Shown: positions 6,776-62,070, numbered from the stretch's first letter. The stretch: 64,000 bases of DNA from Alphaproteobacteria bacterium (GCA_964291215.2 OZ219791.1:1312001-1376000), one strand, 5' to 3'. Numbers and translations: made by a program. Notes: generated from the letters alone by a model not told the origin.

Positions 6776-8038
6776 ATGTCCTGTCCCCGTGTGGAAGGTT
6801 TGGGGCAGGATAGAACTCCGGAGCGTGGTCTTTCAACCTGACACTGTTAACTCGCACGGTGATCCCACGCCAAGTTTGTTGGAAGGGTCGGTTTCGCTTG
6901 TTCAGGATGATTCGCATTTTCGCTGACTTTTTGTGAAGCGGCGCAGTATCCGTTGTCGTGATGGAAGGGGCAGCGGATTTTTTTGAGACGACTCTGGAGG
7001 GTTTTGCGCTCCGGGATGTAGTTGTGCGCCTTGCGTGGCCTGATGTCGCTGGAATCGTGCGGTTGACGGTATCCTGGTTTCAAGCAGTTTGCCGGTCGAG
7101 GTCTGCGCTACGTGTTCACCTGGCGCGGGCAGTGGATTGGCGCTGCGGGCTGGCAGACGGGCGCCCTCGGCTGCGCACCGCGGGACCGTTGGATTGGCTG
7201 GCGCCGCGAGGAACAGTTCAGGCGGTTGCCGGGAACAACACGAGGTTTGTTGTTCTTGGTGGTCGCCGGGTGCTGCCGGGCCTTGCCTCGTTTGCGTTGT
7301 CGCGGATGGTGCGGTGGCGACCGGGAGGCTGCCGTTGCTTGTTGCGGAGTCGTTTGTCTCGCCGACGAAGTTCAGCGGCACCATGTACAAGGTGGCGAAC
7401 CGGGAGGGCGTTGGCAGGAGCTATGCGCGCGCCAACGGGCGCCGACCGGCACAGGGAGGCGAAGGATCTTTACGTGTTTCCGCTGCGTCGTGACGTCGGC
7501 TGCGGGACCGTTCGTCGCGGGTGCAGTTCTCGTATGGCGAATCCAATTCATTGATTTAACACGGTTGTGCGGTCGCGAGGCAGCGGCGAAAACGGGTTTT
7601 CGTGACAATCGCCCGTTTCGGGACAGGATTTTGTCACGACCCCCGCGGCATCGACAGGGTGATCCGGGCGCTGCGCCATCTTCGCGACACCGCGGCGCCA
7701 ACGGGCCGACATCGACAGGGAACCGGCCTTTTTCCGCAAGCATCGCCACCGCATGCGCTACCACGCGCTGAAGCAACCGGCTCGGGAATTGTCGAGGCGG
7801 CGTATCTACTCACCCCTAGTTGGGTTCTGATTCATAGTGCTCGTTGATGATGTCTGCGGCTTTTCCGTCGAGGGCGATCTGGGTGGCGACGAGTGGGTTG
7901 TAGCCGAGTGCGGCCATGGAGGTGAGGTAGCTTGAGCTCCGGCACCATGCTTTTGCGTGGAGCGGAAGCATCCGGACACCTTGACCTTTGCCATCCTGAT
8001 CTTCTGTTCTCCGGCATTGTTGGTGAAGCTGACATTGG

Positions 8039-9681
8039 GTGCGCCAGGCTAACTGGTGGAATGTTGCCGGGTGCAAGTCCCGGCAGGAAGAGAGGCTAAC
8101 CACCACTTTCTCCGTGAACCATGCGTCGTGAGGCGTCAGGCGAAGCGTTGGGGAACGGCAGGCCGGGCTATTGAGCCACGAGATGCTTTGAAACCGGAGT
8201 GCCGAGGTCGTGGCCGAAGGCAACGAGCCGCGTTGGTGAGGGGGGCTCCGCGGGGTCCGAGAACCATGGCCGAAGCAGGGACCTGGGAGGTCTTTCAATC
8301 GCCCCTCTGTCGTGGAGGGGCCGCAGAGGAAAGGAACTATTCCATAAACCGATGATGAACGAGAAGTCAGATCCGGCCATAGTACCGTTGAAGGCGGCGA
8401 ACAAGGGTTCTTCGGAGCCTGCGGAGTTGCTGGAGGGAAGGGCAATGCGGTTGGCCCGCGCCGCGCGCAGAAGCGGGGGTCACAGGCGGCTGAACGCAGG
8501 TAGCGAAGAGGAACCCGGAAGAGCGTCTTTACTCCACCACGTGACGGTCGACGCTCTGCACGATGCGTTCCATTCCTTGAGGAAGGACGCGGCGGCGGGG
8601 CGTTGTGTGGCAAGCGTATGCGGAGGGTGTGGAACTGCCTGCACGCCCGTGTGCACAGGGGCGGGCGCCTCCGGGGTTTACATACCCAAGGAGGATGGAG
8701 GGCAACGACCGCTTGCCTCGGACAAGATTCTTCAGCGGGCGGTGTGATTCTGGTGCCGCGAGACGGAGTTCCTCGGGTTTAGTTACGGTTTCCGGCCGGG
8801 GCGCATCACGCGCTCGACGCCGTCACGGTGGAACGGCGGAAGGTCAACTGGATCGTTGACGCCCGCGGGTTCTTCGACAATCTCGACCGCGACCACCTGA
8901 TTGCGATGCTCGGGAAACGGATCGGGGGGTTATCCGGCTGATCATCAAGTGGCTGAACGCCGGCGTCATGGAAGGGACCGACTGGTCGGATACGGGCAAG
9001 GGAACACCGCAGGGGGCGATTGTATCGCCCTGCCTCGCGAACGTTTACCTGCACTACGTGCGACTGGTTCCAGAACCACTGGCGCAAGCGGATGGCTGGA
9101 GGCGACACGATCATTATGCGGACGACTTCGTGTGCGGCTTTCAGCATCTGGGCGATGCGCAGCGCTTTCTCCGGGACCTTGGGGAGAGGCTGGCCCACTT
9201 GAACTGCACCCGGACAATCATCGAGTTCGGTCGGTTTGCCAGAGCGAACCGCCGGAAGCAGGGCAAGACATTCGACTTCCTCGGCATGACGCACTTCTGC
9301 GAACAGACGAGGAAAGGCAGGTTCAGGGTCGGTCGCAAACCGTCTCGCAAACGGGCACCCTGCGGCGGATCAAGGGGGCCTTGCGCATGCGATGGCACGA
9401 CAACCGGCACGAAACGGCCAAGTGGTGAGTCATCAACGGCTGCTACTACGCCGTCCCGGGAAGCAGTCAATCCCTGCAGGGGTTCATACACCAATGCAAA
9501 CGGCTGCGTGCCCTTCGGCGACGCTCCCAAAAGGACTTCACCGGGGACATAGACACCCTCGCCGCTGCCCACTGAGCCAGCATCCGCCACCCGTGGCCAA
9601 ACCAGCGCCTTGTCGTCAGGGGAGGAGCGAACAGCGCACGTCCGGTTCTGTGCGGGGGGTAACCCGGTTCCCTACCGCAAT
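8039..9681 (+). mobile_element. Group II intron copy 1 (RT pseudogene)
   Basis: 5' GTGCG; 3' DV/DVI-like ..GCACGTCCGGTTCTGTGCGGGGGG..CCCTACCGCAAT; RT fragments YIPKEDG, FSYGFRPGR, GTPQGA, YADD, FDFLG; frameshifted. Confidence 0.93.
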
Positions 9682-11324
9682 GTGCGCCAGGCAAACTGGT
9701 GGAATGTTGCCGGGTGCAAGTCCCGAGAGAGGCTAACCACCACTTTCTCCGTGAACCATGCGTCGTGAGGCGTCAGGCGAAGCGTTGGGGAGCGGCAGGC
9801 TGGGCTATTGAGCCACGAGATGCTTTGAAACCGGAGTGCCGAGGTCGTCCAAGTGGGCAACACCCCGCGAGCCGCGTTGGTGAGGGGGGCTCCGCGGGGT
9901 CCGAGAACCATGGCCGAAGCAGGGACCTGGGAGGTCTTGCCCCTCTGTCGTGGAGGGGCCGCAGAGGAAAGGAACTATTCCATAAACCGATGATGAACGA
10001 GAAGTCAGATCCGGCCATAGTACCGTTGAAGGCGGCGAACAAGGGTTCTTCGGAGCCTGCGGAGTTGCTGGAGGGAAGGGCAATGCGGTTGGCCCGCGCC
10101 GCGCGCAGAAGCGGGGGTCACAGGCGGCTGAACGCAGGTAGCGAAGAGGAACCCGGAAGAGCGTCTTTACTCCACCACGTGACGGTCGACGCTCTGCACG
10201 ATGCGTTCCATTCCTTGAGGAAGGACGCGGCGGCGGGGCGTTGTGTGGCAAGCGTATGCGGAGGGTGTGGAACTGCCTGCACGCCCGTGTGCACAGGGGT
10301 GCGTACCGGGCGCCTCCAGGGTTTACATACCCAAGGAGGATGGAGGGCAACGACCGCTTGCCTCGGACAAGATTCTTCAGCGGGCAGTGTGATTCTGGTG
10401 CCGCTCTACGAAACGGAGTTCCTCGGGTTTAGTTACGGTTTCCGGCCGGGGCGCATCACGCGCTCGACGCCGTCACGGTGGAACGGCGGAAGGTCAACTG
10501 GATCGTTGACGCCCGCGGGTTCTTCGACAATCTCGACCGCGACCACCTGATTGCGATGCTCGGGAAACGGATCGGGGGGTCTGATCATCAAGTGGCTAAA
10601 CGCCGGCGTCATGGAAGGGACCGACTGGTCGGATACGGGCAAGGGAACACCGCAGGGGGCGATTGTATCGCCCTGCCTCGCGAACGTTTACCTGCACTAC
10701 GTGCGACTGGGTCCAGAACCACTGGCGCAAGCGGATGGCTGGAGGCGACACGATCATTATGCGGACGACTTCGTGTGCGGCTTTCAGCATCTGGGCGATG
10801 CGCAGCGCTTTCTCCGGGACCTTGGGGAGAGGCTGGCCCACTTGAACTGCACCCGGACAATCATCGAGTTCGGTCGGTTTGCCAGAGCGAACCGCCGGAA
10901 GCAGGGCAAGACGTTCGACTTCCTCGGCATGACGCACTTCTGCGAACAGACGAGGAAAGGCAGGTTCAGGGTCGGTCGCAAACCGTCTCGCAAACGGGCA
11001 CCCTGCGGCGGATCAAGGGGGCCTTGCGCATGCGATGGCACGACAACCGGCACGAAACGGCCAAGTGGTGAGTCATCAACGGCTGCTACTACGCCGTCCC
11101 GGGAAGCAGTCAATCCCTGCAGGGGTTCATACACCAATGCAAACGGCTGCGTGCCCTTCGGCGACGCTCCCAAAAGGACTTCACCGGGGACATAGACACC
11201 CTCGCCGCTGCCCACTGAGCCAGCATCCGCCACCCGTGGCCAAACCAGCGCCTTGTCGTCAGGGGAGGAGCGAACAGCGCACGTCCGGTTCTGTGCGGGG
11301 GGTAACCCGGTTCCCTACCGCAAT
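9682..11324 (+). mobile_element. Group II intron copy 2 (RT pseudogene)
   Basis: Directly abuts copy 1 (CGCAAT|GTGCGCC); same RT motifs, frameshifted. Confidence 0.93.
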
Positions 11325-12961
11325 GTGCGCCAGGCAAACTGGTGGAATGTTGCCGGGTGCAAGTCCCGAGAGAGGCTAACCACCACTTTCTCCGTGAACC
11401 ATGCGTCGTGAGGCGCCAGGCGAAGCGTTGGGGAGCGGCAGGCCAGGCTATTGAGCCACGAGATGCTTTGAAACCGGAGTGCCGAGGTCGTCCAAGTGGG
11501 CAACACCCCGCGAGCCGCGTTGGTGAGGGGGGCTCCGCGGGGTCCGAGAACCATGGCCGAAGCAGGGACCTGGGAGGTCTTGCCCCTCTGTCGTGGAGGG
11601 GCCGCAGAGGAAAGGAACTATTCCATAAACCGATGATGAACGAGAAGTCAGATCCGGCCATAGTACCGTTGAAGGCGGCGAACAAAGGTTCTCCGGAGCC
11701 TGCGGAGTTGCTGGAGGGAAGGGCAATGCGGTTGGCCCGCGCCGCGCGCAGAAGCGGGGGTCACAGGCGGCTGAACGCAGGTAGCGAAGAGGAACCCGGA
11801 AGAGCGTCTTTACTCCACCACGTGACGGTCGACGCTCTGCACGACGCGTTCCATTCCTTGAGGAAGGACGCGGCGGCGGGGCGTTGTGTGGCAAGCATAC
11901 GCGGAAGGGGTGGAACTGGTTGATCTACACGCCCGTGTGCACAGGGGTGCGTACCGGGCGCCTCCAGGGTTTACATTCCCAAGGAGGATGGAGGGCAACG
12001 ACCGCTTGCCTCGGACAAGATTCTTCAGCGGGCAGTGTGATTCTGGTGCCGCTCTACGAAACGGAGTTCCTCGGTTTCAGCTACGGTTTCCGGCCGGGAC
12101 GCATCATGCGCTCGACGCCGTCACGGTGGAACGGCGGAAGGTCAACTGGATCGTTGACGCCCGCGGGTTCTTTGACAATCTCGACCGCGACCACCTGATT
12201 GCGATGCTCGGGAAACGGATCGGGGGGTTATCCGGCTGATCATCAAGTGGCTGAACGCCGGCGTCATGGAAGGGACCGACTGGCAAGGGAACACCGCAGG
12301 GGGCGATTGTATCGCCCTGCCTCGCGAACGTTTACCTGCACTACGTGCGACTGGGTCCAGAACCACTGGCGCAAGCGGATGGCTGGAGGCGACACGATCA
12401 TTATGCGGACGACTTCGTGTGCGGCTTTCAGCATCTGAGCGACGCGCAGCGCTTTCTCCGGGACCTTGGGGAGAGGCTGGCCCACTTGAACTGCACCCGG
12501 ACAATCATCGAGTTCGGTCGGTTTGCCAGAGCGAACCGCCGGAAGCAGGGCAAGACGTTCGACTTCCTCGGCATGACGCACTTCTGCGAACAGACGAGGA
12601 AAGGCAGGTTCAGGGTCGGTCGCAAACCGTCTCGCAAACGGGCACCCTGCGGCGGATCAAGGGGGCCTTGCGCATGCGATGGCACGACAACCGGCACGAA
12701 ACGGCCAAGTGGTGAGTCATCAACGGCTGCTACTACGCCGTCCCGGGAAGCAGTCAATCCCTGCAGGGGTTCATACACCAATGCAAACGGCTGCGTGCCC
12801 TTCGGCGACGCTCCCAAAAGGACTTCACCGGGGACATAGACACCCTCACCGCTGCCCACTGAGCCAGCATCCGTGGCCAAACCAGCGCCTTGTCGTCAGG
12901 GGAGGAGCGAACAGCGCACGTCCGGTTCTGTGCGGGGGGTAACCCGGTTCCCTACCGCAAT
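11325..12961 (+). mobile_element. Group II intron copy 3 (RT pseudogene)
   Basis: Directly abuts copy 2; ends CGCAAT and IS66 sequence resumes with GGTCGTCTGTGAAGC. Confidence 0.93.
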
Positions 12962-15086
12962 GGTCGTCTGTGAAGCGCAGGTTTTCGTGTTTCACGAGAC
13001 GTTCGTGCAGGTTGTGCGCGCCGGACTTGCGTCCACGTTTTCCTTTCGGCGGGATATCGGGCAGTTCCCTGGCGCCCTGATGGTGCGGTAGCGCTTGCGC
13101 CCGGCGTCGTTCAGGGTTTTGGATGCGCTCTTGTTGACCTTGTGGCAGGGAGCAGGCTCTTCATCAGTCGCGCGGTAGCCTCGACGACAAAGGTCAGTTC
13201 GCGCAGCAGGTGGCTGCCGCTGGTGGCTACACTGGCCCATGTACGAGGCCCAGGACGCCCTTGTAACACGGGATGATGCCGATCTCTTGCCCGCGCTTGC
13301 GGTGCGGGAACTTGCACGTCAGGGTCCCACGACATGGAGCCACTTACTGTTGATCCGAAATCGTCGACATCGGGCGTTGCAGGAGGTGCGCCACGGCGGC
13401 CTCCTCCCATGACGCATCGTGAAAGCATAGCCGAGGCCTCGGAGAGCTTGATATCGCCTGCACGAGCGCGACGGCGCAGGGACAGCATTTGGGCGACCAG
13501 CAGGTTGATGACGAGGGCCTGGATGCCGATGCCGTAATGCACGGGATGTTGTCGGGGAACCGGCCCCGGGCCTTGCACTTCGGACATTCCTTGATCTCGG
13601 CGCGGCGCTCGACGACCTCGAACACGATGTCGTGCGGCGCTCCCGATCGACGGGGCCGTCGATGTCGGCGCCGCAGGCCGCGACCGTTTCCTCGACGATG
13701 GTCTTGCGCAGGTTGTCGCCCATCTGCCGGTTCGGCTTCGGGCCGTTGCTCCCGGCACGCTCTCGTCCTTGTCCGTCTGTGACGGCGGCAGACCGGAGTT
13801 CCGGCTCGTGCGTAGTCTTCTCCAGAAGGACGACGATGATGATGTCGAGCAGGATGACGAGGACGCGGATCACGGCCTCTTTCGGCACCTTGCCGGCAGC
13901 GCCGCGGTCTTGGCCGCTTCGAACTCCTCGCGCGCCGCGTTGACCGTCGCCATCACCCGGTCTTGCGCTTCATCAGCGCGCCGCCTCCGAGATGCGTTTC
14001 CACATACAGATCATGCGGGGGCTGGAGCCTCGGAAGCAGCTGGCACAGCCCGCTCGTCGCCTTCGATCCAAAGTAGCCCACTGGCGGTCCCCTCGATTAC
14101 CACCACTAAACGAATCGGCCTGCAGTGTCAAATCTCCACGAAAACCCGTTCATTGCTCTACCCCGACATCAAGCCGGAACCAGGGGGTGAGCAGTTACGA
14201 GGCGGCAAATAAGACCCTCGTCACACAGCGCATGAAACGCTCTGGCATGCGCTGGCGCATCGTCGGCGGACAATCACCTTCCGCGCCCTGCTCGAAGCCA
14301 GCCGCTTCGAGAGCGCGTGGACGGCCATGATCGGTGCAGACGACGCACCAGCCAACGACAACATCAGCCCAAATCACACCCCGGCACTGGCCGTACGAGA
14401 TGAACAAATGGTACTGAGCCTGCAACTGTGCCATACGAAACTCTCACCCTTCGCCGCTTCCTGTGGCGTGGGAGTTGCGGGCGCCGCTGGTCGCGCAGGA
14501 GTTGTGCTCGATTTATCAGCGGCGCTTTCCGGCGCGCGCAGGGGCATCGCCTCGGTACTGTGCGTGATGGCGCGGCTTGCGAACCGGCGCGGCGGCGCAC
14601 TACGACGCAGAAGGAGCTGGAGCAGCATGGAAGAACAGGGACAAGCCGGTCTCGACCGTGCACCGGGTGCTGCAGAACACCGACCCGGGATGGATCGAGG
14701 ATGCGGCGCGCAGCCGCAGGTCGGCAACGCGGTCGACGGCAAGCGCACCGGCGAGGATCATTACGAGACAGTCTCGCTGGCCGGTATTCGATCCTCAACT
14801 ATCACGACGGGGAGATCGCTGCCGTCCACGCCGCGACGGCGCTGGCCGTCTGCTCACCCTCGACGCGCTCCACACCACCCGCGAGGCTGATCATCGAGAC
14901 CCATCGCGCGGACTGATGGTCAAGGGCAACGCACCTTCGAGAGAGCATCAACTGGAAGACCGCCAGCGCTACAACGAAAAGCCCGCGCATGGCCGCCAGC
15001 GCATCATCTTCACCCCGCTGGCGAAGATGATCAACTATGTCAAGCAGATCTTCCGCGTCACCCGGCACGTCGAATTCAGGAAATCC

Positions 15087-16288
15087 GCCCCACTTCCAGT
15101 CTGAAGTGCAACATCCGGCCCTCATCGCAGTGAGGGCGTAGCCCGAACGGAGATGAGGGCCGGATGTTGCGCAAATTTTTCCCCTCTGCTCTTCTCGATT
15201 CCGCCTGGGAACAGCTTCAGTTCCTTCAACATCGAGCTTATGCAACGCCTTTGTCGGCTTCAAGCCACTATTTCGTCGTCGCGCGGCATGGACCCTGCTG
15301 CACGTTGCGGCTTTGGAACGCAGATGGTCAGCGCGGTTTCACTTCAAGATTACCTCCGTCGGCGATCCCAGGACTTTCCGAGTGTTGAGCCGCACCTTCT
15401 GAACATCTTCGTTGCATGTCGCGCGAAAGTCCGTGCCCTTCGGGAAGTACTCCCGCACCAGGCCGTTGGTGTGCTCATTCAAGCCGCGCTCCCAGGAATG
15501 GAAAGGCGAAGAAGAAATCTGCGTCAAGTGCGACACGCCTGTGGTCTGCGAACTCTTTGCCGTTGTGATTGTGTGGACCAATAGCGCACCAGAGCCGAGC
15601 AGGCGGATCATACCAACCGTGTCTTTCTGTCCACCCAGCAAGGTGTATTTCGTGGCACGAGCGACACGACAGCTCCACTGTGAGCTTTGCCGATGATGGC
15701 TCCCAGTCGCCGATCCGTTCCTTTGCCTCCGCAGGGCGCTCGGAAATGTCCACTCGGCCAGGAATGTGGCCCCGATGGCATCCGCCCTTCCAGTTCGGCT
15801 TCTTGCCGCGCCGCCGAAGCTTCTTCCACAAGACGCCCCGGCTCTCCGATCTTCGGCGATCATGGATCCGTTGCCAACCCACGGCCCTCCAGTCGAAAAC
15901 GGCCGCTGCTCGGGGCCCTCCCGCAGCTTTTTCTGAGCTTCAGCCCGAGGCGTCAACCGCCAAGAAACAGACAAGGCGGCCCTGCGGCGCGTTTCTGCCA
16001 TCCTTTGCGCCTGCTTGTGACGGTAACCCCGTCCCCCGGTGTTGCGCTTGATCTCCCGGAAAATTGTTGATCGGCCCAGCTGCCGAGCAATCGCACCTCG
16101 TGAAAGACCGCTTTTCTGCCTCAATCTGACATCGCTCTTCGTAGGTGACGGTAGCCTTTGGACATGAACAAGCTCCCTTCATCTTGTACAGGAACTCTCG
16201 CCGCTGCTGGACAGCTCCGCAACATCATGCGTCTAAAAACACATGGCCACAGCCCATCATGTGTTGCACTTCACTATGGAACGGGGGG
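15087..16288 (-). mobile_element. IS30-family element copy A (degenerate)
   Basis: IRs CCCCACTTCCAGTCTGAAGTGCAACA / TGTTGCACTTCACTATGGAACGGGG; STIFREIKRN, RIGDWE, NGKEF, WERGLNEHTNGLVREYFPKGTDF. Confidence 0.92.
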
Positions 16289-18235: not shown

Positions 18236-20083
18236 CACGGTGATCCCACGCTAGGTTTGTTGGAAGGGTCGGTTTCGCTTATTCAGGATGATTCGCATTT
18301 TCGCTGGCTTTTTGTGAAGCGACGTAGTATCCGTTGTCGTGGGGGCAGCGGATTTTTTTGAGACGACTCCGGAGGGTTTTGCGCTCCGGGATGTGGTTGT
18401 GCGCCTTGCGCGGCCTGATGTCGCTGAAATCGTGTCGTTGACCGTATCTTGGTTTCAAGCAGTTTGCCGGTCGAGGTCTGCGTGTTCACCTGGCGCGGGC
18501 GGTGGATTGGTGCTGCGGGCTGGCAGACGGGCGTCCTCAGCTGCGCACCCGTTGGATTGGCTGGCGCCGCGAGGAACAGTTCAGGCGGTTGCCGGGAACA
18601 ACACGAGGTTTGTTGTTCCTGGTGGTCGTTTCCGGGCCTTGCCTCGTTTGCGTTGTCGCGGATGGTGCGGCGTGGCGACTGGGAGGCTGCGTACGGCCAT
18701 CCGTTGCTTGTTGCGGAGTCGTTTGTCTCGCCGACGAAGTTCAGCGGCACCATGTACAAAGCGGCGAACTGGGAGTGCGTTGGCAAGGGCTATGCGCGCG
18801 CCAGCGGGCGCTATACCGACCGGCACGGGGAGGCGAAGGATCTTTACGTGTTTCCGCTGCGTCGCGATGCCTGTCGTCGGCTGCGGGATCGTTCACCGCT
18901 TCCTGTGGCGTGGGAGTTGCGGGCGCCGCTGGTCGGCGCAGGAGTTGCGCTCGATTTATCAGCGGCGCTTTCCGACTTCCGGCGCGCGCAGGGGCACCGC
19001 ATCGCCTCGGTGCTGTGCGTGATTTTGCTGGCTTGCGAACCGGCACGGTGCGGTTGCGGCGGCGCACTACGACGCAGAAGGAGCTGGAGCAGCATGGAAG
19101 AACAGGGACAAGCCGGTTTCCAAATCGACCGTGCACCGGGTGCTGCAGAACACCGACCCGGGATGGATCGAGGATGCGGCGCGCAGCCGCAGGTCGGCAA
19201 CGCGGTCGACGGCAAGCGCATCCGCGGCCGCACCGGCGAGGATCATTACGAGACGGTCTCGCTGGCACGGGACCGGTATGCCGGTTTCGATCCTCAACTA
19301 TAACGACGGGGAGATCGCTGCCGTCCACGCCGCGACGGCGCCGGCCGTCTGCTCACCCTCGACGCGCTCCACACCACCCGCGAGGCTGATCATCGAGACC
19401 CATCGCGCGGACTGATGGTCAAGGGCAACGCACCTTCGAGAGAGCATCAACTGGAAGACCGCCAGCGCTACAACGAAAAGCCCGCGCATGGCCGCCAGCG
19501 CACCATCTTCACCCCGCTGGCGAAGATGATCAACTAGTCAAGCAGATCTTCCGCGTCACCCGGCGCGTCGAATTCAAGAAATCCGGAAAACGGACAACCG
19601 AATACGGCATGACCTCGGTCAAGGCCGAACGCGCCTCGCCGCAACAGCTGCTCGCATGGAATCGCGGACACTGGGTAGTCGAGAGCCATCATCATGTCCG
19701 CGACGCCACCTTCCGCGAAGACGACTCCATGCTCCGAACGCGCCCGCAAACAACGCGATCACCCTCGCAATCATCATCCGCAACAAGCTGCCCAAACCCT
19801 TCAACAGCTTCGTCGACACCACTATGCCGACAAACGCAAGCAGGTCCTGCACGCAATCACAAGACCAGGCTGACCGCGCCTCTCTCCCCGACAGAAACCG
19901 CAAGCCTTCGAGCCCGGCAACCAAACTCGGCAGGCCTCTCGCTCGCCCCGGATACGCCGACCAATCGCGCCCCGCGCCGCAACAGCGCGTCAGCAAATCT
20001 CAAAATCGCAGTCTCGAACGCGTCGACCCGCGCCGCGATCAGGACTCCGATCACATCACATCAACAAGCATGGGATCATCTTG
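18236..20083 (+). mobile_element. ISAs1/DUF4338 element copy 2 (both ends present, degenerate)
   Basis: Ends CACGGTGATCCCA / TGGGATCATCTTG; C-terminal WNRGHWVVESHHHVRDATFRED (ISAs1 signature). Confidence 0.88.
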
Positions 20084-21880: not shown

Positions 21881-21917
21881 CGAACTTTTCTCCTTAGGAA
21901 TCTCGCCAAAATGAATT

Positions 21918-25500: not shown

Positions 25501-25662
25501 CAAACCCGGCAGGCCTCTCGCTCGCCCCGGATACGCCGACCAATCGCGCCCCGCGCCGCAACAGCGCGTCAGCAAATCTCAAAATCGCAGCCTCGAACGC
25601 GTCGACCCGCGCCGCGATCAGGACTCCGATCACATCACATCAACAAGCATGGGATCACCTTG
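22579..25662 (+). mobile_element. ISAs1/DUF4338 element copy 3 (degenerate, interrupted)
   Basis: Ends CACGGCGATCCCA / TGGGATCACCTTG; colinear with copy 2 except for an insert at about 23852-25198. Confidence 0.88.
23852..25198 (+). mobile_element. Insert of IS remnants including a degenerate IS110-family transposase
   Basis: Absent from copy 2; fragments ILTSIPG..AAALLCWMPELG and KVAIVAVMRKL typical of IS110; outer parts unclassified; boundaries approximate. Confidence 0.65.
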
Positions 25663-37063: not shown

Positions 37064-37083
37064 GCGGAAAAGAGGGGCGCGCC

Positions 37084-40543: not shown

Positions 40544-40545
40544 AC

Positions 40546-42025: not shown

Positions 42026-42099
42026 CGCTGTCGGCGGACTGGCGGGAGGCTCTCGGGCGGGCGCCGGACCGAGTGATCGGTTCAGGCCCGCCTCTCGCG

Positions 42100-43107: not shown

Positions 43108-43379
43108 AACTCGGGTTGCCTTTAGTTCTCGCTTCAGCTGCTTCGCCTTTCGGCGAACCGCCTTCACCTCCGCACGGGTCGCCTTGAGATGGTGTTCCAG
43201 CGCCTCCGCTCGGATTCGCCTCGTAAAGCGCATGCCAGTCAGGCTCCTCGCAGGGCCCAGACAGCAGACACTGGCCCTCTCCCATCAGCGGCCGTGCCGC
43301 CCCGTGTGTCTCCTCGAAAGGCTCCATGGCCTCGACAATAGATGAGGCCAATTTTTTCCTAATTCCCACTCAAACTAAG

Positions 43380-44577
43380 CCCCCGTTCCATAGTGAAGTG
43401 CAACACATGATGGGCTGTGGCCATGTGTTTTTAGACGCATGATGTTGCGGAGCTGTCCAGCAGCGGCGAGAGTTCCTGTACAAGATGGAGGGAGCTTGTT
43501 CATGTCCAAAGGCTACCGTCACCTACGAAGAGCGATGCCAGATTGAGGCAGAAAAGCGGTCTTTCACAAGGTGCGATTGCTCGGCAGCTGGGCCGATCAA
43601 CAATTTTCCGGGAAATCAAACGCAACACCGGGGGATGGGGTTACCGTCACAAGCAGGCGCAAAGGATGGCAGAAACGCAGGGCCGCCTCGTCTGTTTCCT
43701 GGCGGTTGACGCCTCGGGTTGAAGCTCAGAAAAAGCTGCGGGAGGGCCCTGAGCAGATCAGCGGCCGTTTTCGACTGGAGGGTCGTGGGTCGGCAACGGA
43801 TCTATGATCGCATTCATGAAGATCGGAGAGCTGGGGGCGCCTTGTGGAAGAAGCTTCGGCGGCGCGGCAAGAAGCCGAACTGGAAGGGCGGATGCCATTC
43901 CGGCCGGGTGGACATTTCCGAGCGCCCTGCGGTCGTTGAGGCAAAGGAACGGATCGGCGACTGGGAGCCATCATCGGCAAAGCTCACAGTGGAGCTGTCG
44001 TGTCGCTCGTGCCACGAAATACACCTTGCTGGGTGGACAGAAAGACACGGTTGGTATGATCCGCCTGCTCGGCTCTGGTGCGCTATTGGTCCACACAATC
44101 ACAACGGCAAGGAGTTCGCAGACCACAGGCGTGTCGCACTTGACGCAGATTTCTTCTTCGCCTTTCCATTCTTGGGAGCGCGGCTTGAATGAGCACACCA
44201 ATGGCCTGGTGCGGGAGTACTTCCCGAAGGGCGCGGACTTTCGCGCGACATGCAACGAAGATGTTCAGAAGGTGCGGCTCAACACTCGGAAAGTCCTGGG
44301 ATCGCCGACGGAGGTAATCTTGAAGTGAAACCGCCCTGACCATCTGCGTTCCGCAGCCGCAACGTGCAGCAGGGTCCATGCCGCGCGACGGGGAAATAGT
44401 GGCTTGAAGCCGACAAAGGCGTTGCATAAGCTTGATGTTGAAGGAACTGAAGCTGTTCCCAGGCGGAATCGAGAGGGGCAGAGGGGAAAAATTTGCGCAA
44501 CCCGGCCCTCATCTCCGTTCGGGCTACGCCCTCACTGCGATGAGGGCCGGGTGTTGCACTTCAGACTGGAAGTGGGG
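43380..44577 (+). mobile_element. IS30-family element copy B (degenerate)
   Basis: Same IRs and frameshifted transposase as copy A. Confidence 0.92.
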
Positions 44578-45420: not shown

Positions 45421-45451
45421 AAAACATTCATATTTTCCAATAAATTACTTT

Positions 45452-46928
45452 GTAACTGCTCACCCCTTGGTTCCGGCTTGATGTCGGAGTAGAGCAACGA
45501 ACGGGTTTTCGTGGAGATTTGACACTGCAGGCCGATTCGTTTAGTGGTGGTAATCGAGAACGACGGGGACCGCCAGTGGGCTACTTTGGATCGAAGGCGA
45601 CGAGCGGGCTGTGCCAGCTGCTTCCGGGGCTCCGCATGATCTGTATGTGGAAACGCATCTCGGAGGCGGCGCGCTGATGAAGCGCAAGGCCGGGCGGTGG
45701 AGTACCGGAAGATGCCGCCGGGCGAGCGCCAGGCGATGCTCGCGGCGACCGTCGAGGCCGGGTGATGGCGACGGGCGGCGCGCGAGGAGTTCGAAGCGGC
45801 CAGGACCGCGGCGCTGCCGGCAAGGTGCCGAAAGAGGCCGTGATCCGCGTCCTCCTGCTCGACATCCTCATCGTCGTCCTTCTGGAGAAGACCACGCACG
45901 AGCCGGAACTCCGGTCTGCCGCCGTCACAGACGGACAAGAGCGTGCCGGGAGCAACGGCCCGAAGCCGAACCGGCAGATGGGCGACTACCTGCGCAAGAC
46001 CATCGTCGAGGAGACGGTCGCCGTCGATCGGGAGCGCCGCACGACATCGTGTTCGAGGTCGTCGAGCGCCGCGTCGACGCCGAGGAATGCCCGAAGTGCA
46101 AGGGCCGGTTCCCCGACAACATCCCGTGCAGTACGGCATCCAGGCCCTCGTCATCAACCTGCTGGTTGCCCAGATGCTGTCCCTGCGCCGTCGCGCTCGT
46201 GCAGGCGATCTCCGGCATCAAACTCTCCGAGGCCTCGGCTATGCTTTCACGATGCGTCATGGGAGGAGGCCGCCGTGGCGCACCTCCTGCAACGCCCGAT
46301 GTCGACGATTCCGAATCAACGGTAAGTGGCTCCATGTCGTCGGGACGTGCAAGTTCCCGCACCGCAAGCAAGAGATCGGCCCGTGCTACAAGGGCGTCCT
46401 GGGCCTCGTACATGGCAGTGTAGCCACCAGTTGTGCGGCAGCCACCTGCTGCGCGAACTGACCTTTGTCGTCGAGGCTACCGCGCGACTGATGAAGAGCC
46501 TGCTCCGCGAGGTCTGCCACAAGGTCAACAAGAGCGCATCCAGGACCCTGAACGAGGCCGTGCGCTACCGCACCATCAGGGCGCCAAGGAACTGCTCGAC
46601 ATCCCGACGAAAGGAAAACGCATCGCAAACGCGCACAACCTGCACGAACGTCTCGTGAAACACGAAAACCTGCGCTTCACAGACGACCCCGACGTCAGCT
46701 TCACCAACAATGCCGGAGAACAGAAGATCAGGATGGCAAAGGTCAAGGTGTCCGGATGCTTCCGCTCCACGCAAAAGCATGGTGCCGGGGCTCAAGCTAC
46801 CTCACCTCCATGGCCGCACTCGGCTACAATCATCACGTCGCCACCCAGATCGCCCTCGACGGAAAAGCCGCAGACATCATCAACGAGCACTACGACTAAT
46901 CAGAACCCAACTAGGGGTGAGTAGATAC
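45452..46928 (+). mobile_element. IS66-family element (uninterrupted, degenerate)
   Basis: GTAACTGCTCACCCC ... GGGGTGAGTAGATAC; CGSHLLREL, FTNNAGEQKIR; shows the empty intron site. Confidence 0.92.
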
Positions 46929-49877: not shown

Positions 49878-49914
49878 ATAAAATTTTTCGGCGGGGATAT
49901 GTCGGAAAATTAAG

Positions 49915-51034
49915 CCCCCGTTCCATAGTGAAGTGCAACACATGATGGGCTGTGGCCATGTGTTTTTAGACGCATGATGTTGCGGAGCTGTCCAGCAGCG
50001 GCGAGAGTTCCTGTACAAGATGGAGGGAGCTTGTTCATGTCCAAAGGCTACCGTCACCTACGAAGAGCGATGTCAGATTGAGGCAGAAAAGCGGTCTTTC
50101 ACAAGGTGCGATTGCTCGGCAGCTGGGCCGATCAACAATTTTCCGGGAGATCAAGCGCAACACCGGGGGACGGGGTTACCGTCACAAGCAGGCGCAAAGG
50201 ATGGCAGAAACGCAGGGCAGCCTCGTCTGTTTCCTGGCGGTTGACGCCTCGGGTTGAAGCTCAGAAAAAGCTGCGGGAGGGCCCCGAGCAGCGGCCGTTT
50301 TCGACTGGAGGGCCGTGGGTCGGCAACGGATCCATGATCGCTGAAGATCGGAGAGCCGGGGGCATCTTGTGGAAGAAGCTTCGGCGGCGCGGCAAGAAGC
50401 CGAACTGGAAGGGCGGATGCCATTCCGGCCGGGTGGACATTTCCGAGCGCCCTGCGGAGGCAAAGGAACGGATCGGCGACTGGGAGCCATCATCGGCAAA
50501 GCTCACAGTGGAGCTGTCGTGTCGCTCGTGCCACGAAATACACCTTGCTGGGTGGACAGAAAGACACGGTTGGTATGATCCGCCTGCTCGGCTCTGGTGC
50601 GCTATTGGTCCACACAATCACAACGGCAAAGAGTTCGCAGACCACAGGCGTGTCGCACTTGACGCAGATTTCTTCTTCGCCTTTCCATTCCTGGGAGCGC
50701 GGCTTGAATGAGCACACCAACGGCCTGGTGCGGGAGTACTTCCCGAAGGGCACGGACTTTCGCGCGACATGCAACGAAGATGTTCAGAAGGTGCGGCTCA
50801 ACACTCGGAAAGTCCCGGGATCGCCGACGGAGGTAATCTTGAAGGGAAACCGCCCTGACCATCTGCGTTCCGTAGCCGCAACGTGCAGCAGGGTCCATGC
50901 CGCGCGACGGCGGAATAGTGGCTTGAAGCCGACAAAGGCGTTGCATAAGCTCGATGTTGAAGGAACTGAAGCTGTTCCCAGGCGGAATCGAGAGGGGCAG
51001 AGGGGGGATGTTGCACTTCAGACTGGAAGTGGGG
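49915..51034 (+). mobile_element. IS30-family element copy C (degenerate)
   Basis: Same IRs and frameshifted transposase; lacks the subterminal hairpin present in A and B. Confidence 0.92.
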
Positions 51035-56845: not shown

Positions 56846-56911
56846 ACTCGATCCCTGAGCGTCTTCACGCAAATTGCTGATGCCTTTCTCACGCAATTTG
56901 ATGGATATTTG

Positions 56912-57648
56912 GTAACTGCTCACCCCCTGGTTCCGGCTTGATGTCGGGGTAGAGCAACGAACGGGTTTTCGTGGAGATTTGACACTGCATGCCGATTCGC
57001 TTAGTGGTGGTAATCGAGAACGACGGGGCCCGCCAGTGGGCTACTTTGGATCGAAGGCGACGAGCGGGCTGTGCCAGCTGCTTCCGGGGCTCCAGCCCCC
57101 GCATGATCTGTATGTGGAAACGCATCTCGGAAGCGGCGCGCTGATGAAGCGCAAGGCCGGGTGATGGCGACGGGCGGCGCGCGAGGAGTTCGAAGCGGCC
57201 AAGACCGCGGCGCTGCGTGCGGCCGGCAAGGTGGCGGAAGAGGCCGTGATCCGCGTCCTCGTCATCCTGCTCGACATCATCATCGTCGTCCTTCTGGAGA
57301 AGACCACGCACGAGCCGGAACTCCGGTCTGCCGCCGTCACAGACGGACGAGAGCGTGCCGGGAGCAACGGCCCGAAGCCGAACCGGCAGATGGGCGACAA
57401 CCTGCGCAAGATCATCGTCGAGGAGACGGTCGCGGCCTGCGACGCCTGCGGCGCCGACATCGACGGCCCCGTCGATCGGGAGCGCCGCACGACATCGTGT
57501 TCGAGGTCGTCGAGCGCCGCGCCGAGATCAAGGAATGCCCGAAGTGCAAGGCCCGGGGCCGATTTCCCGACAACATCCCGTGCAGTACGGCATCGGCATC
57601 CAGGCCCTCGTTATCAACCTGCTGGTCGCCCAGATGCTGTCCCTGCGC
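56912..57648 (+). mobile_element. IS66-family element, 5' half, truncated by IS256
   Basis: Starts GTAACTGCTCACCCC, colinear with the 45452 and 58782 copies. Confidence 0.9.
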
Positions 57649-60432
57649 GATTACGCAACCTGATGTCTGGAAATTGTCGTGAAGCTGTCAGTCATCGAGC
57701 TGTTCCCATTTGATCTTGGTTTCGGTTTCCCATTTTTCGTCGATGAGGACCGCGGTTGAGAGGCGCTCCAACGAGGCGAGGTTTGGAAAGACCCTGACTT
57801 TGGAGGTGCGCCGCTTGAGCTCTTGCTGGATCGGTCGCTCGATGCCGTTTGAGGTTCGCATACGCTTGTGGTGAGCATCGGGCAAGGTGAAGACAGCGAG
57901 CCCCGCATTGTTTTCCAGCCAGGAAGCCTGGATGCTTGTCGCGATAGCTGGCCACGAGGGTGCCCAGTTCAGCCTCGGCGGTTTGGAGTAAGGACGCATG
58001 GCTCTGAGCTGTTTTCCAATACGTTTCCTGATGTCGTTGTTCGGTGCACGGCGTTTTGTGCCAGGTGGAATTGGCAGCGCTGCCATGTCGCCGCGCCCAG
58101 CACCGCGCGTCGTGCTGCTTTCAGCCCGGCATCCGAGACGATGAAGGTCGTACCATGCAGGGCTAGCAAGCTTTCCAGGAAGGCTCTCCAATGGACCTCG
58201 GCCTCGGAGAGCGCCACAGAGAGCCCCAGAACGTGCCTGCAGCCCCTATTCCGATGGCCGAGAGCACTGCAACATCGCGCACAACGCCGTCATGGCGGGC
58301 TTTTTCGTAGCGCGCATCCAGGATCAGGTATTTCATCAGGGGCCGGTTGCGCGGCGAGTTCTTCATCGAGCAACCTGGTGGCCCGGCTGACCTGAGAAGA
58401 GGACAGGCTCCCGAACTCGCGCATTACATCTTGCCGAGTGGAAACACCCTTGATGTACAATCTCGGCTACGGCCACGGCGCGAGAAGATCGCTGGCCGCG
58501 TTCAAGCGACTGGGGATAGAACGGGTCGTCCCCGTGACCGGCCGTCTTTGGTACCTGAACGGTAACAGTGGGGGTGTCGATCCGTTTGTAGCCGTTGGCA
58601 TAGCCCTGTCGTTCCGGTGTCCGGTGGCCCGCTTTCAAGTGCTGCTCGCGCTCGATTTGCATCGCAAGCTCGAAGAGCTGACCAAAGACCCGCCCCAGAT
58701 CCGTTGCTCCGTTTGCGATCAGATGTTCCAAAACGGCCTCAATCGTCGTAGTGTGTCGCAGGTCCATTCGCTTCCTCCATGGTAACTGCTCACCCCCTGG
58801 TTCCGGCTTGATGTCGGGGTAGAGTAACGAACGGGTTTACGTGGAGATTTGACACTGCAGGCAGATTCGTTTAGTGGTGGTAATCGAGAACGACGGGGAC
58901 CACCAGGCTACTTTGGATCGAAGGCGACGAGCGGGCTGTGCCAGCTGCTTCCGGGGCTCCAGCCCCCGCATGATCTGTATGTGGAAACGCATCTCGGAAG
59001 CGGCGCGCTGATGAAGCGCAAGGCCGGGTGATGGCGACGGGCGGCGCGCGAGGAGTTCGAAGCGGCCAAGACCCGGATCGCGGCGCTGCGTGCGGCCGGC
59101 AAGGTGGCGGAAGAGGCCGTGATCCGCGTCTTCGTCATCCTGCTCGACATCCTCATCGTCGTCCTTCTGGAGAAGACCACGCACGAGCCGGAACTCCGGT
59201 CTGCCGCCGTCACAGACGGACAAGGACGAGAGCGTGCCGGGAGCAACGGCCCGAAGCCGAACCGGCAGATGGGCGACAACCTGCGCAAGATCATCGTCGA
59301 GGAAACGGTCGTGGCCTGCGACGCCTGCGGCGCTGTGACATCGACGGCCCCGTCGATCGGGAGCGCCGCACGACATCGTGTTCGAGGTCGTCGAGCGCCG
59401 CGCCGAGGAATGCCCGAAGTGCAAGGCCCGGTTCCCCGACAACATCCCGTGCAGTACGGCATCCAGGCCCTCGTCATCAACCTGCTGGTCGCCCAGATTC
59501 TGTCCCTGCGCCGTGCTGTCGCGCTCGTGCAGGCGATCTCCGGCATCAAGCTCTCCGAGGCAACCTGCCTCGGCTATGCTTTCACGATGCGTCATGGGAG
59601 GAGGCCGCCGTGGCGCACCTCCTGCAACGCCCGATGTCGACGATTTCGGATCAACGGCAAGTGGCTTCATGTCGTGGGACCCTGACGTGCAAGTTCCCGC
59701 ACCGCAAGCGCGGCCGGGAGGCAAGAGATCGGCCCGTGCTACAAGGGCGTCCTGGGCCTCGTACATGGGCCAGTGTAGCCACCAGCTGTGCGGCAGCCAC
59801 CTGCTGCGCGAACTGACCTTTGTCGTCGAGGCTACCGCGCGACTGATGAAGAGCCTGCTCCGCGAGATCTGCCACAAGGTCAACAAGAGCGCATCCAAAA
59901 CCCTGAACGACGCCGGGCGCAAGCGCTACCGCACCATCAGGGCGCCAGGGAACTGCCCGACATCCCGACGAAAGGAAAACGTGGACGCAAGTCCGACGCG
60001 CACAACCTGCACGAACGTCTCGTGAAACACGAAAACCTGCGCTTCATAGACAACCCCGACGTCAGCTTCACCAACAATGCCGGAGAACAGAAGATCAGGA
60101 TGGCAAAGGTCAAGGTGTCTGGATGCTTCCGCTCCACGCAAAAGCATGGTGCCGGGGCTCAAGCTACCTCACCTCCATGGCCGCACTCGGCTACAACCCA
60201 CTCGTCGCCACCCAGATCGCCCTCGACGGAAAAGCCGCAGACATCATCAACGAGCACTACGACCAATCAGAACCCAACTAGGGGTGAGTAGATACCCTCC
60301 ATGAATGTTTACAGCTCCATGGGATAGCACGATGGCGCCGCGTTTCACTGGGGAGCTAGCCCCCCCCCCCCCAGTGAAACGCCTCAAAGCGCAAACCTCA
60401 GACAAATTTCCAGACATCAAGTTACAGTACCG
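57649..60432 (-). mobile_element. IS256-family element (degenerate) interrupted by IS66
   Basis: IRs containing TGATGTCTGGAAATT; GYANGYK, YLILDARYEK, WQRCQFHL, RTSNGIER..ELKRRT..VFPN; outer limits approximate. Confidence 0.85.
58782..60295 (+). mobile_element. IS66-family element (both ends, degenerate)
   Basis: Both ends present; exact 8-bp target duplication CCTCCATG (58774-58781, 60296-60303). Confidence 0.93.
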
Positions 60433-60637
60433 GTGTAAAAAAAGCCGGATCGACGGCAAGGAAGCGGAGTTAAATCGTTGGGTGGTGGAAGCGGGATAGG
60501 CTTTCGCTTTCGTCAAATTCTCAAGGGCCTATGCAGACGACGAAGCTGCCACCCGCGTGGCTCGGCGGGGTATCTTGTCTGGTCGTGCGCCCGTGCCGCC
60601 TTGGGAATGGCGACGGAATTGGAAACGCGCCTCCGCC

Positions 60638-61502
60638 CTAGGTTGTGTACCCAAATGTTGGCATTTTTGCACGATCTGTCATGTCTTGTAAAAAGCGATC
60701 CACAAGGAGAATGAGGGATGAGCGGCGACCGACACGACATGAGCGACGCGGAATGGGAAGTTCTCCGCTCGGTGCTTCCTGACAAGCACCAGGGCCCGGA
60801 GCGGGTGCATGACCGGAGGGTCATGAACGGGATATTTTTCGTGCTTCGCACTGGTACGCCGTGGCGCGACCTGCCGGAGCGGTACGGTCCGTACACGACC
60901 TGCTTTAACCGCTTCAACCGGTGGAGCAAGAACGGCACTTGGGCATGGAGAAGCTTCAAAGGCTTACGAGCGGTGATGACGGGAGTGACGATGGCCCGCC
61001 CGGCTCGGTTCATCTGCGCATGGTGGACTCCTCGTCGGTGCGCGTTCACAAGCCGGGGCGTCCCGGGACGACGAGCCTTCGCAGATCGGACTGAGCCGTG
61101 GCGGACGAACGACGAAGGTCCATCTTGGCGAGAACGAGAGGGTGAAGACCGTGTTCCTGACCCCGGGCCAGGCGGCCGACTGCGCGCAGGCGCTTCTCGC
61201 CGACCTCGGGCATGGCGAGACGGTGGTCGGCGACAAGGCCTACGACACCGACGCCATTCTCGACCTGATCGAGACGGCAGGAGCAACCGCGGTCATGAAA
61301 TCCAACCGGACATCGCCCCGGCCGCTCGACCGCGAGATCTACAGGATGCGCAACTTGGTCGAGCGGTTCTTCGGTAAGATCAAGGAGTTCCGACGGGTCG
61401 CCACCCGTTATGACAAGGAACTTCCTCTCCGCCGTGCAACTGGCTGCCAGCCGATTCTTGCTCCGCAGAATCGCAAACCAATTATTTGAGTCCACAGCCT
61501 AG
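60638..61502 (+). mobile_element. IS5-family element (degenerate)
   Basis: IRs CTAGGTTGTGTACCCAAAT / ATTTGAGTCCACAGCCTAG; LRTGTPWRDLPERYG, GDKAYD, RNLVERFF..RRVATRYDK. Confidence 0.9.
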
Positions 61503-61740
61503 GTAGCCCGGCCTTCCCCATCTGGTCCAGTTTTGACGTTAGCGTTTGTCACTGAATAATCGAATCCATGTTGTTGGCGTTGGCGTTTTTGTCTGTCTGG
61601 TGGTTTTGGTTGAGTGCTTGCCCACGGGTCAGCCTGTTGGCTTCGGTTGGTTGGTGTTGGGGTCTTTCCGGAATGATTTGTCGGTCAGTTTGTTGCCGGT
61701 TTATTCTCCGGCGTTGGTTTGGTGCGTTTACATTCGGTGC

Positions 61741-62070
61741 ATGGAACAGGCAGAGAGCATAAGGCACCGGTTTGCAGTCCTTTCTCCTCATCTTGACGAG
61801 AAGGGTCGTCGGTTGCTTGCGGCGGTTGAGGCGCAATGTCTTGGGCGTGGCGGAATAACGTAGGTCTCGGATCTCACCGGAGTTGCGCGTTCGACGATTG
61901 GACGGGATCTGAAGGAGCTTGACGGAGTAACGTCGCCGCCGGCACCGAATCGGGTCCGGTGTGCGGGCGACGGGCGCAAGCCGACGACGTAGCGTCAGCC
62001 GGGTTTGCTGCCGGCGCTTGAGGCGCTAGTCGTGCCGGCGATGCGGGGCGACCCGGAGCGGTCTCCGTGG
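61741..62070 (+). mobile_element. ISAzo13-family transposase N-terminal remnant
   Basis: LDEKGRRLLAAVEA..LGRGGIT*VSDLTGVARSTIGR..GRK..GDPE, with internal stops. Confidence 0.75.

Follow-up and report, generated by a model that had tools for sequence, protein, structure and literature searches.

RIP of fungi introduces new C-to-T changes into duplicated DNA through a methyltransferase-like enzyme. On the usual view, IS copies in bacteria decay singly under a power-law deletion bias, and conversion, if anything, preserves them. Gene conversion among non-functional IS copies has been described in Wolbachia wBm (Cordaux 2009, as cited in the accessible part of PMC3205602). In bacterial pseudogenes, according to the accessible text of PMC6054270, deletions outnumber insertions in neutral DNA and follow power-law sizes with an excess of multiples of three, repeats having been masked; alternative (microhomology) end joining (A-EJ) is also named there. 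Bacterial mismatch repair (MMR; MutS/MutL) repairs loops well up to ~4 nt and larger ones poorly, and a separate loop-directed removal exists (PMC2504288, accessible part).

Here we analysed a stretch of 64,000 nucleotides (the window) from an uncultured alphaproteobacterium with a genome of 6.15 Mb, throughout which the shredding pattern described below holds. Mobile DNA makes up about a quarter of this genome. Two layers appear to be involved, namely a lineage-specific background of 5–8 bp deletions and their spread between repeat copies; in the open literature searched (subscription papers and supplements lay outside its scope), no published case of such deletion spread was found.

Elements and lesions in the window

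A sequence-only reading of the window had proposed that mobile elements are shredded by small deletions next to intact core genes. This was borne out: against rebuilt family ancestors, the ten copies with tabulated counts (Table 1) carry 6–35 deletions of 5–8 bp and 11–45 substitutions each, polA is whole, and host genes are mostly whole, with 310/317 tested genes intact. The lesions are shared by many copies of dead multi-copy elements. The 1.5-kb IS66-related element is related to an IS66 carrying a passenger gene, the ISAs1-like assignment derives from a short match to the ISAs1 transposase, and the introns show the D1–D4 RNA fold (Rfam). ISx gave no plasmid match, and a 568-aa ORF gave neither a Pfam match nor a credible Atlas match.

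Most of the individual sharing patterns listed in that reading were recovered. Introns 1 and 2 are complementary, in that intron 1 (8207) lacks 6-bp and 7-bp pieces present in intron 2 (9844), from which an adjacent 6-bp piece is missing. A base-by-base check found GTTGA at 11918 in intron 3 and its absence from introns 1 and 2. Likewise, ATCAG is present in IS30 copy B (43751) and missing from A (15903) and C (50286), and the GGGGCCACATTCC stretch (15761) is unique to copy A among the three. The 68-bp collapse between AGGCCGGG repeats (45687/45755), claimed for all three other IS66-related copies, was found in two (57154 and 59021), the third having no exact match.

Table 1. Positions, strands and lesions of the features in the window.
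Feature	Position	Strand	Remarks
Group II intron copy 1, dead	8039..9681	+	Rfam group-II-D1D4-6; 35 deletions of 5–8 bp vs 1,879-bp family ancestor
Group II intron copy 2, in direct tandem with copy 1	9682..11324	+	35 deletions of 5–8 bp
Group II intron copy 3	11325..12961	+	34 deletions of 5–8 bp
IS66-related 1.5-kb element, interrupted by three introns	7801..14226		target duplications of 8 bp; the genome holds 123 near-full copies
ISx (unnamed element), split copy	6855..15087 (pieces 6855–7518 and 14450–15087)		
IS30-family copy A	15088..16287	-	15 deletions of 5–8 bp, 19 substitutions
ISx copy	18236..19592		26 deletions of 5–8 bp, 13 substitutions
ISx copy	22579..23843		27 deletions of 5–8 bp, 32 substitutions
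ISAs1-like copy	23850..25662		22 deletions of 5–8 bp, 28 substitutions; extra piece 19623–20083
DNA polymerase I gene (polA), intact	29182..32115	+	control core gene without shredding
hisI pseudogene, single-copy	35976..36445	-	gaps of 9, 6, 6, 5 and 6 bp
Gamma carbonic anhydrase gene	40800..41357	+	one 1-bp loss, outside 5–8 bp class
GNAT gene	41499..42083	-	1-bp indels, 12-bp gap, degenerate 5' part
IS30-family copy B	43372..44577	+	12 deletions of 5–8 bp, 15 substitutions
IS66-related copy	45446..46928		retains 68 bp between AGGCCGGG repeats (45687, 45755)
IS30-family copy C	49907..51005	+	15 deletions of 5–8 bp, 11 substitutions
Two IS66-related pieces (56906–57648, 58750–60295)	56906..60295		flank IS256-family element (57650–58780)
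IS5-family copy	60591..61514	+	6 deletions of 5–8 bp, 20 substitutions

Size class of the deletions

The key feature, overlooked by the sequence-only reading, is a fixed deletion size of 5–8 bp. Among 154 copies of five repeat families, 339 distinct deletions were counted, of which 237 measure 5–8 bp (49, 93, 78 and 17 of 5, 6, 7 and 8 bp) and 33 measure 1–4 bp (19, 4, 4 and 6 of 1, 2, 3 and 4 bp), with 3 each of 9 and 10 bp. Over the whole genome, and with de-duplication incomplete, distinct non-tandem indels that separate repeat copies numbered 44, 37 and 34 at 2, 3 and 4 bp and 256, 598, 366 and 109 at 5, 6, 7 and 8 bp, an excess of 5–8 bp indels far beyond chance. The rebuilt intron ancestor aligns in one frame to an outgroup RT (residues 29–535), whereas the real copies tested for this frame are frameshifted (4/4), so the polarity of the deletions is correct.

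Single-copy DNA and congeners

The size class extends to single-copy DNA, 508 kb of which, compared with the 93%-identical relative G001, yielded 49 vs 3 gaps of 5–8 bp. In the 310 intact genes, where gaps are almost all in-frame and of 6 bp, such in-frame gaps numbered 12 vs 1. Single-copy non-coding DNA showed 21 gaps per ~3,300 substitutions per lineage against G001, several times below the private ratio in repeats; this low long-term rate could reflect recent onset or selection, but also repeat-stimulated mutation. The hisI pseudogene holds 5 gaps in ~470 bp, roughly 50% of the density seen in the intron, and seven other frameshifted single-copy genes (from 12 candidates found) average 0.1 per 500 bp. 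Milder lesions had been noted in hisI, the gamma carbonic anhydrase gene and the GNAT gene; those of hisI include the 5–8 bp class, and those of the other two are of other sizes (Table 1). The general deletion bias suggested on that basis is real as a genome-wide component, but it bears the fixed-size signature rather than that of an ordinary bias.

Among the congeners, the two large ones, G000 and G002, bear the strongest signature, with a peak at 5–6 bp in G002; it is weak in G004, while the G001 and G003 samples contain too few repeats for a test (8 and 2 SNP sites). Across 73 loci in 10 other groups the copies hardly differ, and their 2 gaps among 226 SNP sites make a comparison of low power.

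Spread between copies

In the five families, the mean share of copies carrying a deletion was 0.46 for 5–8 bp (n = 237) vs 0.15 for 1–4 bp (n = 33). Mean carrier frequency reached 0.68 in intron subfamily A vs a neutral 0.23, and 0.47–0.59 in four IS families vs 0.22–0.31 (singletons make up 52–63% of SNPs), the neutral values assuming a constant-size coalescent. Across 463 sampled 500-bp tiles binned from 2 to 40+ copies, the load of 5–8 bp deletions per copy was 0.2, 0.8, 3.2, 6.2, 10.0 and 13.8, figures that miss deletions fixed in all copies (11 such gaps are hidden in the 12-copy IS66) and are underestimates at low copy number. Private deletions per private SNP stayed flat over the same bins (0.038, 0.027, 0.058, 0.049, 0.047 and 0.019), and private variants comprise ~2–6 deletions of 5–8 bp per 100 substitutions.

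The sharing had been described as non-tree-like, and the four-gamete test agreed, failing in 38–73% of deletion pairs and 29–54% of SNP pairs in the intron; linkage decays with distance among copies, and subfamily mosaics are seen. In favour of short tracts, D' at 3–20 and 21–60 bp was 0.70 and 0.56 for deletion–SNP pairs vs 0.83 and 0.74 for SNP–SNP pairs, the marker pairs in these linkage comparisons not being independent. Against short-tract spread, deletion–SNP r2 within 15 bp in the intron (0.38) equals SNP–SNP r2 (0.39), and ISy shows no deletion–SNP linkage drop at 3–20 bp. Of the 47 deletions of intron subfamily B, 45 are common to subfamily A, and this sharing may be partly by descent; only 18 deletions are variable in both. 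A-type SNPs within 15 bp occur in 27/125 subfamily B deletion carriers vs 12/40 non-carriers, with no excess in carriers.

The high carrier frequency of the 5–8 bp class, the rise of load with copy number and the mosaic copies speak for deletion-biased conversion that spreads lesions, one of three causes envisaged from the sequence alone. Features of conversion found here are shared inactivating lesions, mosaic variation that includes SNPs, and the presence of recA, addA and recJ. The accompanying analogy with repeat inactivation is apt for the outcome, but duplication itself was not seen to raise the rate of new lesions, the private ratio being flat.

Proposed mechanism

Background 5–8 bp deletions arise everywhere and are probably passed across repeat copies by one-way gene conversion, through removal of loops likely too large for MutS. 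Deletions of 5–8 bases accumulate genome-wide, in both single-copy and repeated DNA. Most likely they start with a cut of 5–7 bases, staggered or begun at a nick, which is then trimmed and joined again by a route independent of Ku; such a cut is suggested because 5–7 bp tandem duplications occur too and microhomology is mostly absent. Recombination would pair an intact with a deleted copy, the extra bases looping out, and once RecA had formed the heteroduplex, removal of the loop within a short patch would copy the deletion one-way to the sister copy. Each lesion, from whichever copy, would tend to sweep the family, and larger families would thus be destroyed faster, while selection would shield needed genes, which would keep only in-frame gaps. 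The sharp drop in deletions above 8 bp is not accounted for by MutS.

It is possible, if doubtful, that a single undescribed nuclease-ligase activity in the genus clips 5–8 base loops, both making and copying the deletions, and that the genus has retained or co-opted it as a RIP-like defence, proportional to copy number and independent of Ku, Argonaute or CRISPR guides. A search of G000 for seven candidate families returned no Ku, ATP-dependent ligase, topoisomerase IB, NucS, Y1 transposase, AEP primase or Piwi, the Piwi profile being one that may miss short Argonautes. Both mutS and mutL are intact, and Pol I has no telling change. MutS, MutL, XseA, Cas1, AddA, RecA, RecJ and DnaG are present in all five congeners, and these eight are therefore not discriminating for the deletion trait. 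PDDEXK_9 nucleases number 4, 0, 132, 1 and 20 in G000–G004, respectively, and are a lead at most.

Several other candidates were rejected. The distribution of the IS66 passenger gene (abundant in G000, three intact copies in G004, a single one in G001 and only a distant match in G002) does not track the trait. If the deleted piece were a lagging-strand primer, strand counts of the motif should differ, but lagging vs leading gave 59 vs 61 in single-locus repeat deletions, 20 vs 19 (10 ties) in single-copy DNA and 9 vs 14 in G002. Target-site deletion by an abundant transposase is at odds with the target duplications of the well-defined families, a non-exhaustive set, which measure 8, 9 or 10 bp and in no case 5–7. 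NucS-type mismatch cutting was discarded with the absence of NucS from G000 and of any SNP enrichment within deleted segments.

Alternative explanations

It is unlikely that a repeat-sensing system, analogous to fungal repeat-induced mutation, makes new 5–8 bp deletions preferentially in duplicated DNA, with conversion then spreading them. The climb of load with copy number, the low long-term rate in single-copy non-coding DNA and the strength of the signature in G000 and G002 relative to G004 would suit such a system; however, private deletions per private SNP are no higher at 40+ than at 2 copies, single-copy genes bear the signature, the profile search found no Piwi domain, and the shredding spares CRISPR arrays of 96 and 17 repeats.

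Independent recurrence of the same deletions at sequence-defined hot spots through microhomology end joining, another of the causes proposed earlier, is quite improbable and was reduced to a minor part. Microhomology of at least 3 bp is about three times enriched (54 vs ~17 expected), purine-T-C stands at the start of 124/361 seven-base events vs 53 expected (a weak junction preference), and deletions pass from one intron subfamily to another unaccompanied by close SNPs. Nevertheless, 149/239 junctions have 0–1 bp of microhomology, which does not predict spread (mean 0.42 without it vs 0.45–0.55 with it) or yield a 5–8 bp window, and two-copy DNA, which would be loaded equally, is not. The 68-bp example given for microhomology is atypical.

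Sharing by descent from dead, progressively deleted master copies mobilised in trans is highly improbable. It does occur in the 12-copy IS66, whose copies are 99.4–99.8% identical, with 8-bp target duplications and shared fixed gaps, but the intron, IS30, ISx and ISAs1-like families contradict it. Besides the four-gamete failures, the least-deleted intron lies a median of 39.5 deletions and 54 SNPs from subfamily A copies, for which the private ratio predicts ~3 deletions; 47/48 introns have deletions in the D5–D6 region, D5 being required in cis; and tandem intron neighbours are no more similar than distant copies.

Still less credible is unbiased conversion with selection favouring deleted alleles since they silence elements. 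None of the 48 introns keeps an unshifted RT frame (0/48), and the large share of mobile DNA would also fit, but deletions of 6 bp, which keep the frame, spread as far (0.46) as those of 5 and 7 bp, indels of 1 bp gain no advantage (0.12), and the first lesion already kills a copy, yet copies bear up to 50 or more.

A consensus artefact of assembly or polishing in repeats, the last cause proposed from the window, can be dismissed: support for the variants comes from contigs rather than flank-anchored raw reads, but the same 5–7 bp variants recur in short-read contigs of three samples, one of which matches the assembly at 19,388/19,388 single-copy bases, gaps in intact genes are almost all of 6 bp and in frame, and the same IS66 in other genomes' assemblies lacks these gaps.

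Comparison with known systems

The background of 5–8 bp deletions with one-way conversion between copies is likely a bacterial counterpart of repeat inactivation. Fixed-size deletions with size-gated, one-way spread would make abundance itself lethal to a repeat family, a simple and testable route for bacteria to end IS bursts without guide-based defence. The data point to a 5–8 nt cutting-and-joining activity in a genome with MutS/MutL and without Ku, and would offer evidence from nature that conversion favours deletions at the loop limit of MutS. Any finished genome can be screened with the alignment-free gap spectrum.

As in fungal RIP, repeats are destroyed in a homology-dependent manner that grows with repetition, here from a load of 0.2 to 13.8 per 500 bp (fixed lesions being unseen); unlike in RIP, the lesions are 5–8 bp deletions rather than C-to-T changes, single-copy DNA is affected, and the effect of repetition appears to be spread, not induction.

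The pseudogene deletion bias in the accessible text of PMC6054270 shares the surplus of deletions over insertions in neutral DNA and some microhomology, but its power law contrasts with 5, 6 and 7 bp each standing ~tenfold or more above 2–4 bp in five families. A-EJ, as far as that text covers it, is similarly Ku-independent with some microhomology excess, whereas here most junctions have 0–1 bp of microhomology and sizes are fixed rather than broad. The large loop repair of PMC2504288 is matched, indirectly, by the spread of 5–8 bp deletions, above the ~4 nt MutS limit; in the accessible part of that source, it comes from transfection and extracts, is not tied to repeat families and does not stop at loops of about 8 nt. 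Finally, as in Wolbachia wBm, insofar as the accessible part of PMC3205602 describes it, ectopic conversion keeps the many dead IS copies of a single genome similar to one another; unlike there, conversion appears directional and size-gated, the lesions measure 5–8 bp, and deletions per copy rival substitutions in a genome with 310/317 tested genes intact.

Deletion sizes in the multi-copy elements

A genome-wide, size-gated deletion drive is likely real in the genome under study (G000), and likely constitutes a new form of ectopic gene conversion underlain by an unexplained mutational signature. The assembly comprises 6.15 Mb in two contigs (C1 and C2; window at C2:1,312,001-1,376,000) and is 99% complete. 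The source is an alphaproteobacterium. Its 16S sequence finds its best matches, at ~88%, among Phyllobacterium, Sinorhizobium and Tistrella records, and a permuted tmRNA and addA of alphaproteobacterial type accord with that class. Repeated 20-mers cover ~1.7 Mb, and near-full copies genome-wide number 123 for the IS66-related element, 77 for IS256, 59 for the group II intron, 44 for IS30, 34 for the unnamed element ISx, 17 for the ISAs1-like element and 11 for IS5. Many other intron copies have the same upstream flank as those of the window, which indicates homing into the IS66-related element and into the intron's own end.

Features located in the window, in G000 and in a congener (L174 and L116, loci; G001, closest relative, 93%-identical; G002 and G004, further congeners)
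Feature	Coordinates	Observation
Group II introns	window 8039-12961	Three, head to tail, at a single site within an IS66-related element
Single-copy insert	window 20174-21919	1.7 kb; 568-aa open frames on both strands, no match in Pfam or NCBIfam and none credible in Atlas; ~10 paralogues at 70% identity
Gene cluster	window 34632-41357	zigA, hisI, Fur-family regulator, CobW-like GTPase, cysS, sufE/sufU-like, gamma-CA; hisI and gamma-CA broken; looks like a zinc-starvation island; no high-identity counterpart found in G001
IS1595-family transposase fragment	window 44535-45239	Adjoins IS30 copy B
Reversed GC skew	G000:C2 ~1,400,000-1,600,000	Within one replichore; likely an IS-mediated inversion
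Young IS66	L174:287-2643 (G000:C2:2470786-2473142)	~11 sister copies, 99.4-99.8% identical; 8-bp target duplications
CRISPR array	G000:C1 ~574,000-581,000	96 repeats, regular spacing
CRISPR array	G000:C2 ~2,068,500-2,069,600	17 repeats, regular spacing
AAA-ATPase/PDDEXK_9 nuclease genes	e.g. L116:3979-5535 (G002)	132 in G002, 20 in G004, 4 in G000

Ancestors were rebuilt by script for five families (154 copies). The examples of short deletions quoted in the sequence-only reading were all present where it had placed them, except that a 68-bp collapse ascribed to three other copies was found in only two. The rebuilt intron aligned with an outgroup RT in one frame, whereas real copies were frameshifted, so the gaps are deletions. 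Among 339 distinct non-tandem deletions, a tally that leaves out element ends, 237 were of 5-8 bp, 33 of 1-4 bp, six of 9-10 bp and 63 longer, many of the last resembling adjacent pairs. A whole-genome alignment-free count peaked at the same sizes; the usual size law for indels in bacterial pseudogenes is, in a passage of PMC6054270, a power law.

An artefact in repeats, raised as an option by the same reading, is contradicted by short-read contigs assembled from three samples that belong to a single study: these elements show identical 5-7 bp variants there, and one such contig is identical to a single-copy stretch across 19,388 bases. It is also contradicted by an IS66 common to G000 and other genomes (84-89% identity). 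Its transposase half carries 11 gaps (5-9 bp) in G000 only, and the versions in two other genomes, set against each other, show zero 5-8 bp differences.

Probable one-way spread between copies

Within families, deletions had mean carrier frequencies of 0.47-0.68, compared with a neutral 0.22-0.31, and most SNPs were singletons. Spread was gated by size (0.46 for 5-8 bp deletions, 0.15 for 1-4 bp), and for 5-8 bp was equal for in-frame and frameshifting sizes and independent of microhomology. Bacterial mismatch repair, according to part of PMC2504288, weakens above a loop size that coincides with this gate. Across 463 sampled 500-bp tiles of 3,664, per-copy deletion load, counted blind to lesions fixed in all copies, climbed with copy number from 0.2 to 13.8, and private deletions per private SNP stayed level at 0.02-0.06.

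Non-tree-like sharing, as previously proposed, was borne out: four-gamete tests failed for deletion pairs and SNP pairs alike, and chromosomal neighbours were no more similar than distant copies. The window's three introns belong to subfamily B (12 copies, told apart by 34 diagnostic SNPs), which had 45 of its 47 deletions in common with subfamily A (36 copies), with no surplus of A-type SNPs beside them, and 18 deletions varied in both. Deletion-SNP linkage was below SNP-SNP linkage at 3-60 bp in four pooled families, and not below it, by r2, at ≤15 bp in the intron.

Counting against spread by conversion, one young family, IS66, does show mobilisation in trans from an already gapped master; its transposase has 11 fixed gaps and its 230-aa passenger none. 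That passenger, with its DPPY motif, is presumably a DNA adenine methyltransferase and had no match in Pfam or PDB. Other uncultured Alphaproteobacteria, as well as one Dehalococcoidia and one Binatia genome, harbour close relatives of the element in more than one copy, and the window's 1.5-kb IS66-related family is its shredded relative. Intron homing did not spread the lesions, since the RT frame was unshifted in 0 of 48 copies and the D5-D6 region was hit in 47.

Background in single-copy DNA and congeners

Over 508 kb of single-copy alignment with G001 (37,138 substitutions), G000 was the shorter at 49 non-tandem 5-8 bp gaps and G001 at three, compared with 21 and 16 for 2-4 bp gaps. In-frame 6-bp gaps in 310 intact genes numbered 12 in G000 and one in G001; of seven further, broken genes, two were broken by several 5-9 bp gaps. 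Within the window, gaps of 9, 6, 6, 5 and 6 bp were present in single-copy hisI; gamma-CA had lost 1 bp, and the GNAT gene carried lesions of several kinds. A broader search, overlapping the gene set just described, yielded seven single-copy genes with frameshifts, which averaged 0.1 gaps of 5-8 bp per 500 bp, and the long-term rate in single-copy non-coding DNA was low (21 gaps in 55 kb).

In G002, a distant congener, unpolarised indels among 603 SNP sites numbered 0, 3 and 1 at 2-4 bp and 22, 37 and 6 at 5-7 bp, in a sample (802 kb of 6.1 Mb) drawn mostly from a large nuclease gene family. In G004 (421 kb of 3.8 Mb; 176 SNP sites) four indels measured 6-8 bp and no indel measured 2-5 bp, so the trait is patchy or graded within the genus. 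An expansion resembling that of the AAA-ATPase/PDDEXK_9 nuclease genes in G002 is listed for Cardinium (PMC6387759).

Junctions and proposed mechanism

Microhomology at junctions was modestly enriched, yet measured 0-1 bp in 149 of 239. Deleted pieces showed a weak preference for purine-pyrimidine-C at the start, at either end, in G000, and favoured AT at one end in G002 (15/22 and 22/37 vs 2.4 and 4.3 expected); no leading- versus lagging-strand bias of deletions was found. Tandem duplications of the same size were also present: strain differences of 6 and 7 bp in a single-copy test region were both tandem units, and the commonest allele at one IS30 site was a 5-bp duplication joined to a 7-bp deletion. 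The junctions would best fit a staggered or nick-started cut that is trimmed or filled and then joined. Profile searches of G000 did not find Ku, ATP ligase, Piwi, topoisomerase IB, NucS, Y1 transposase or AEP primase; MutS, MutL, RecA, AddA, RecJ and XseA are present. No well-defined element had a 5-7 bp target duplication, and the CRISPR repeats displayed from both arrays had no 5-8 bp losses.

In the mechanism we propose, RecA would pair an intact copy with one carrying a deletion, the additional 5-8 bases would form a loop that escapes MutS, and the loop would then be cut away with a short patch. A lesion in any of n copies would tend to reach all, and load would thus increase with n until saturation; selection would shield needed genes, which would retain in-frame gaps only. 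A single activity confined to 5-8 nt loops could underlie both background and spread, and two activities would fit equally. Given the dense hisI and the low non-coding rate, part of the repeat excess may be induction rather than spread.

Comparison with known systems

An open-literature search for comparable fixed-size deletion spread in repeats found no such case. Fungal RIP is defined by induction through duplication and by point mutation; its outcome is like that in G000, which departs from it on both duplication-triggered induction and point mutation. The closest precedent is Wolbachia wBm, whose dead IS copies undergo conversion, as a passage of PMC3205602 relates in citing Cordaux 2009.
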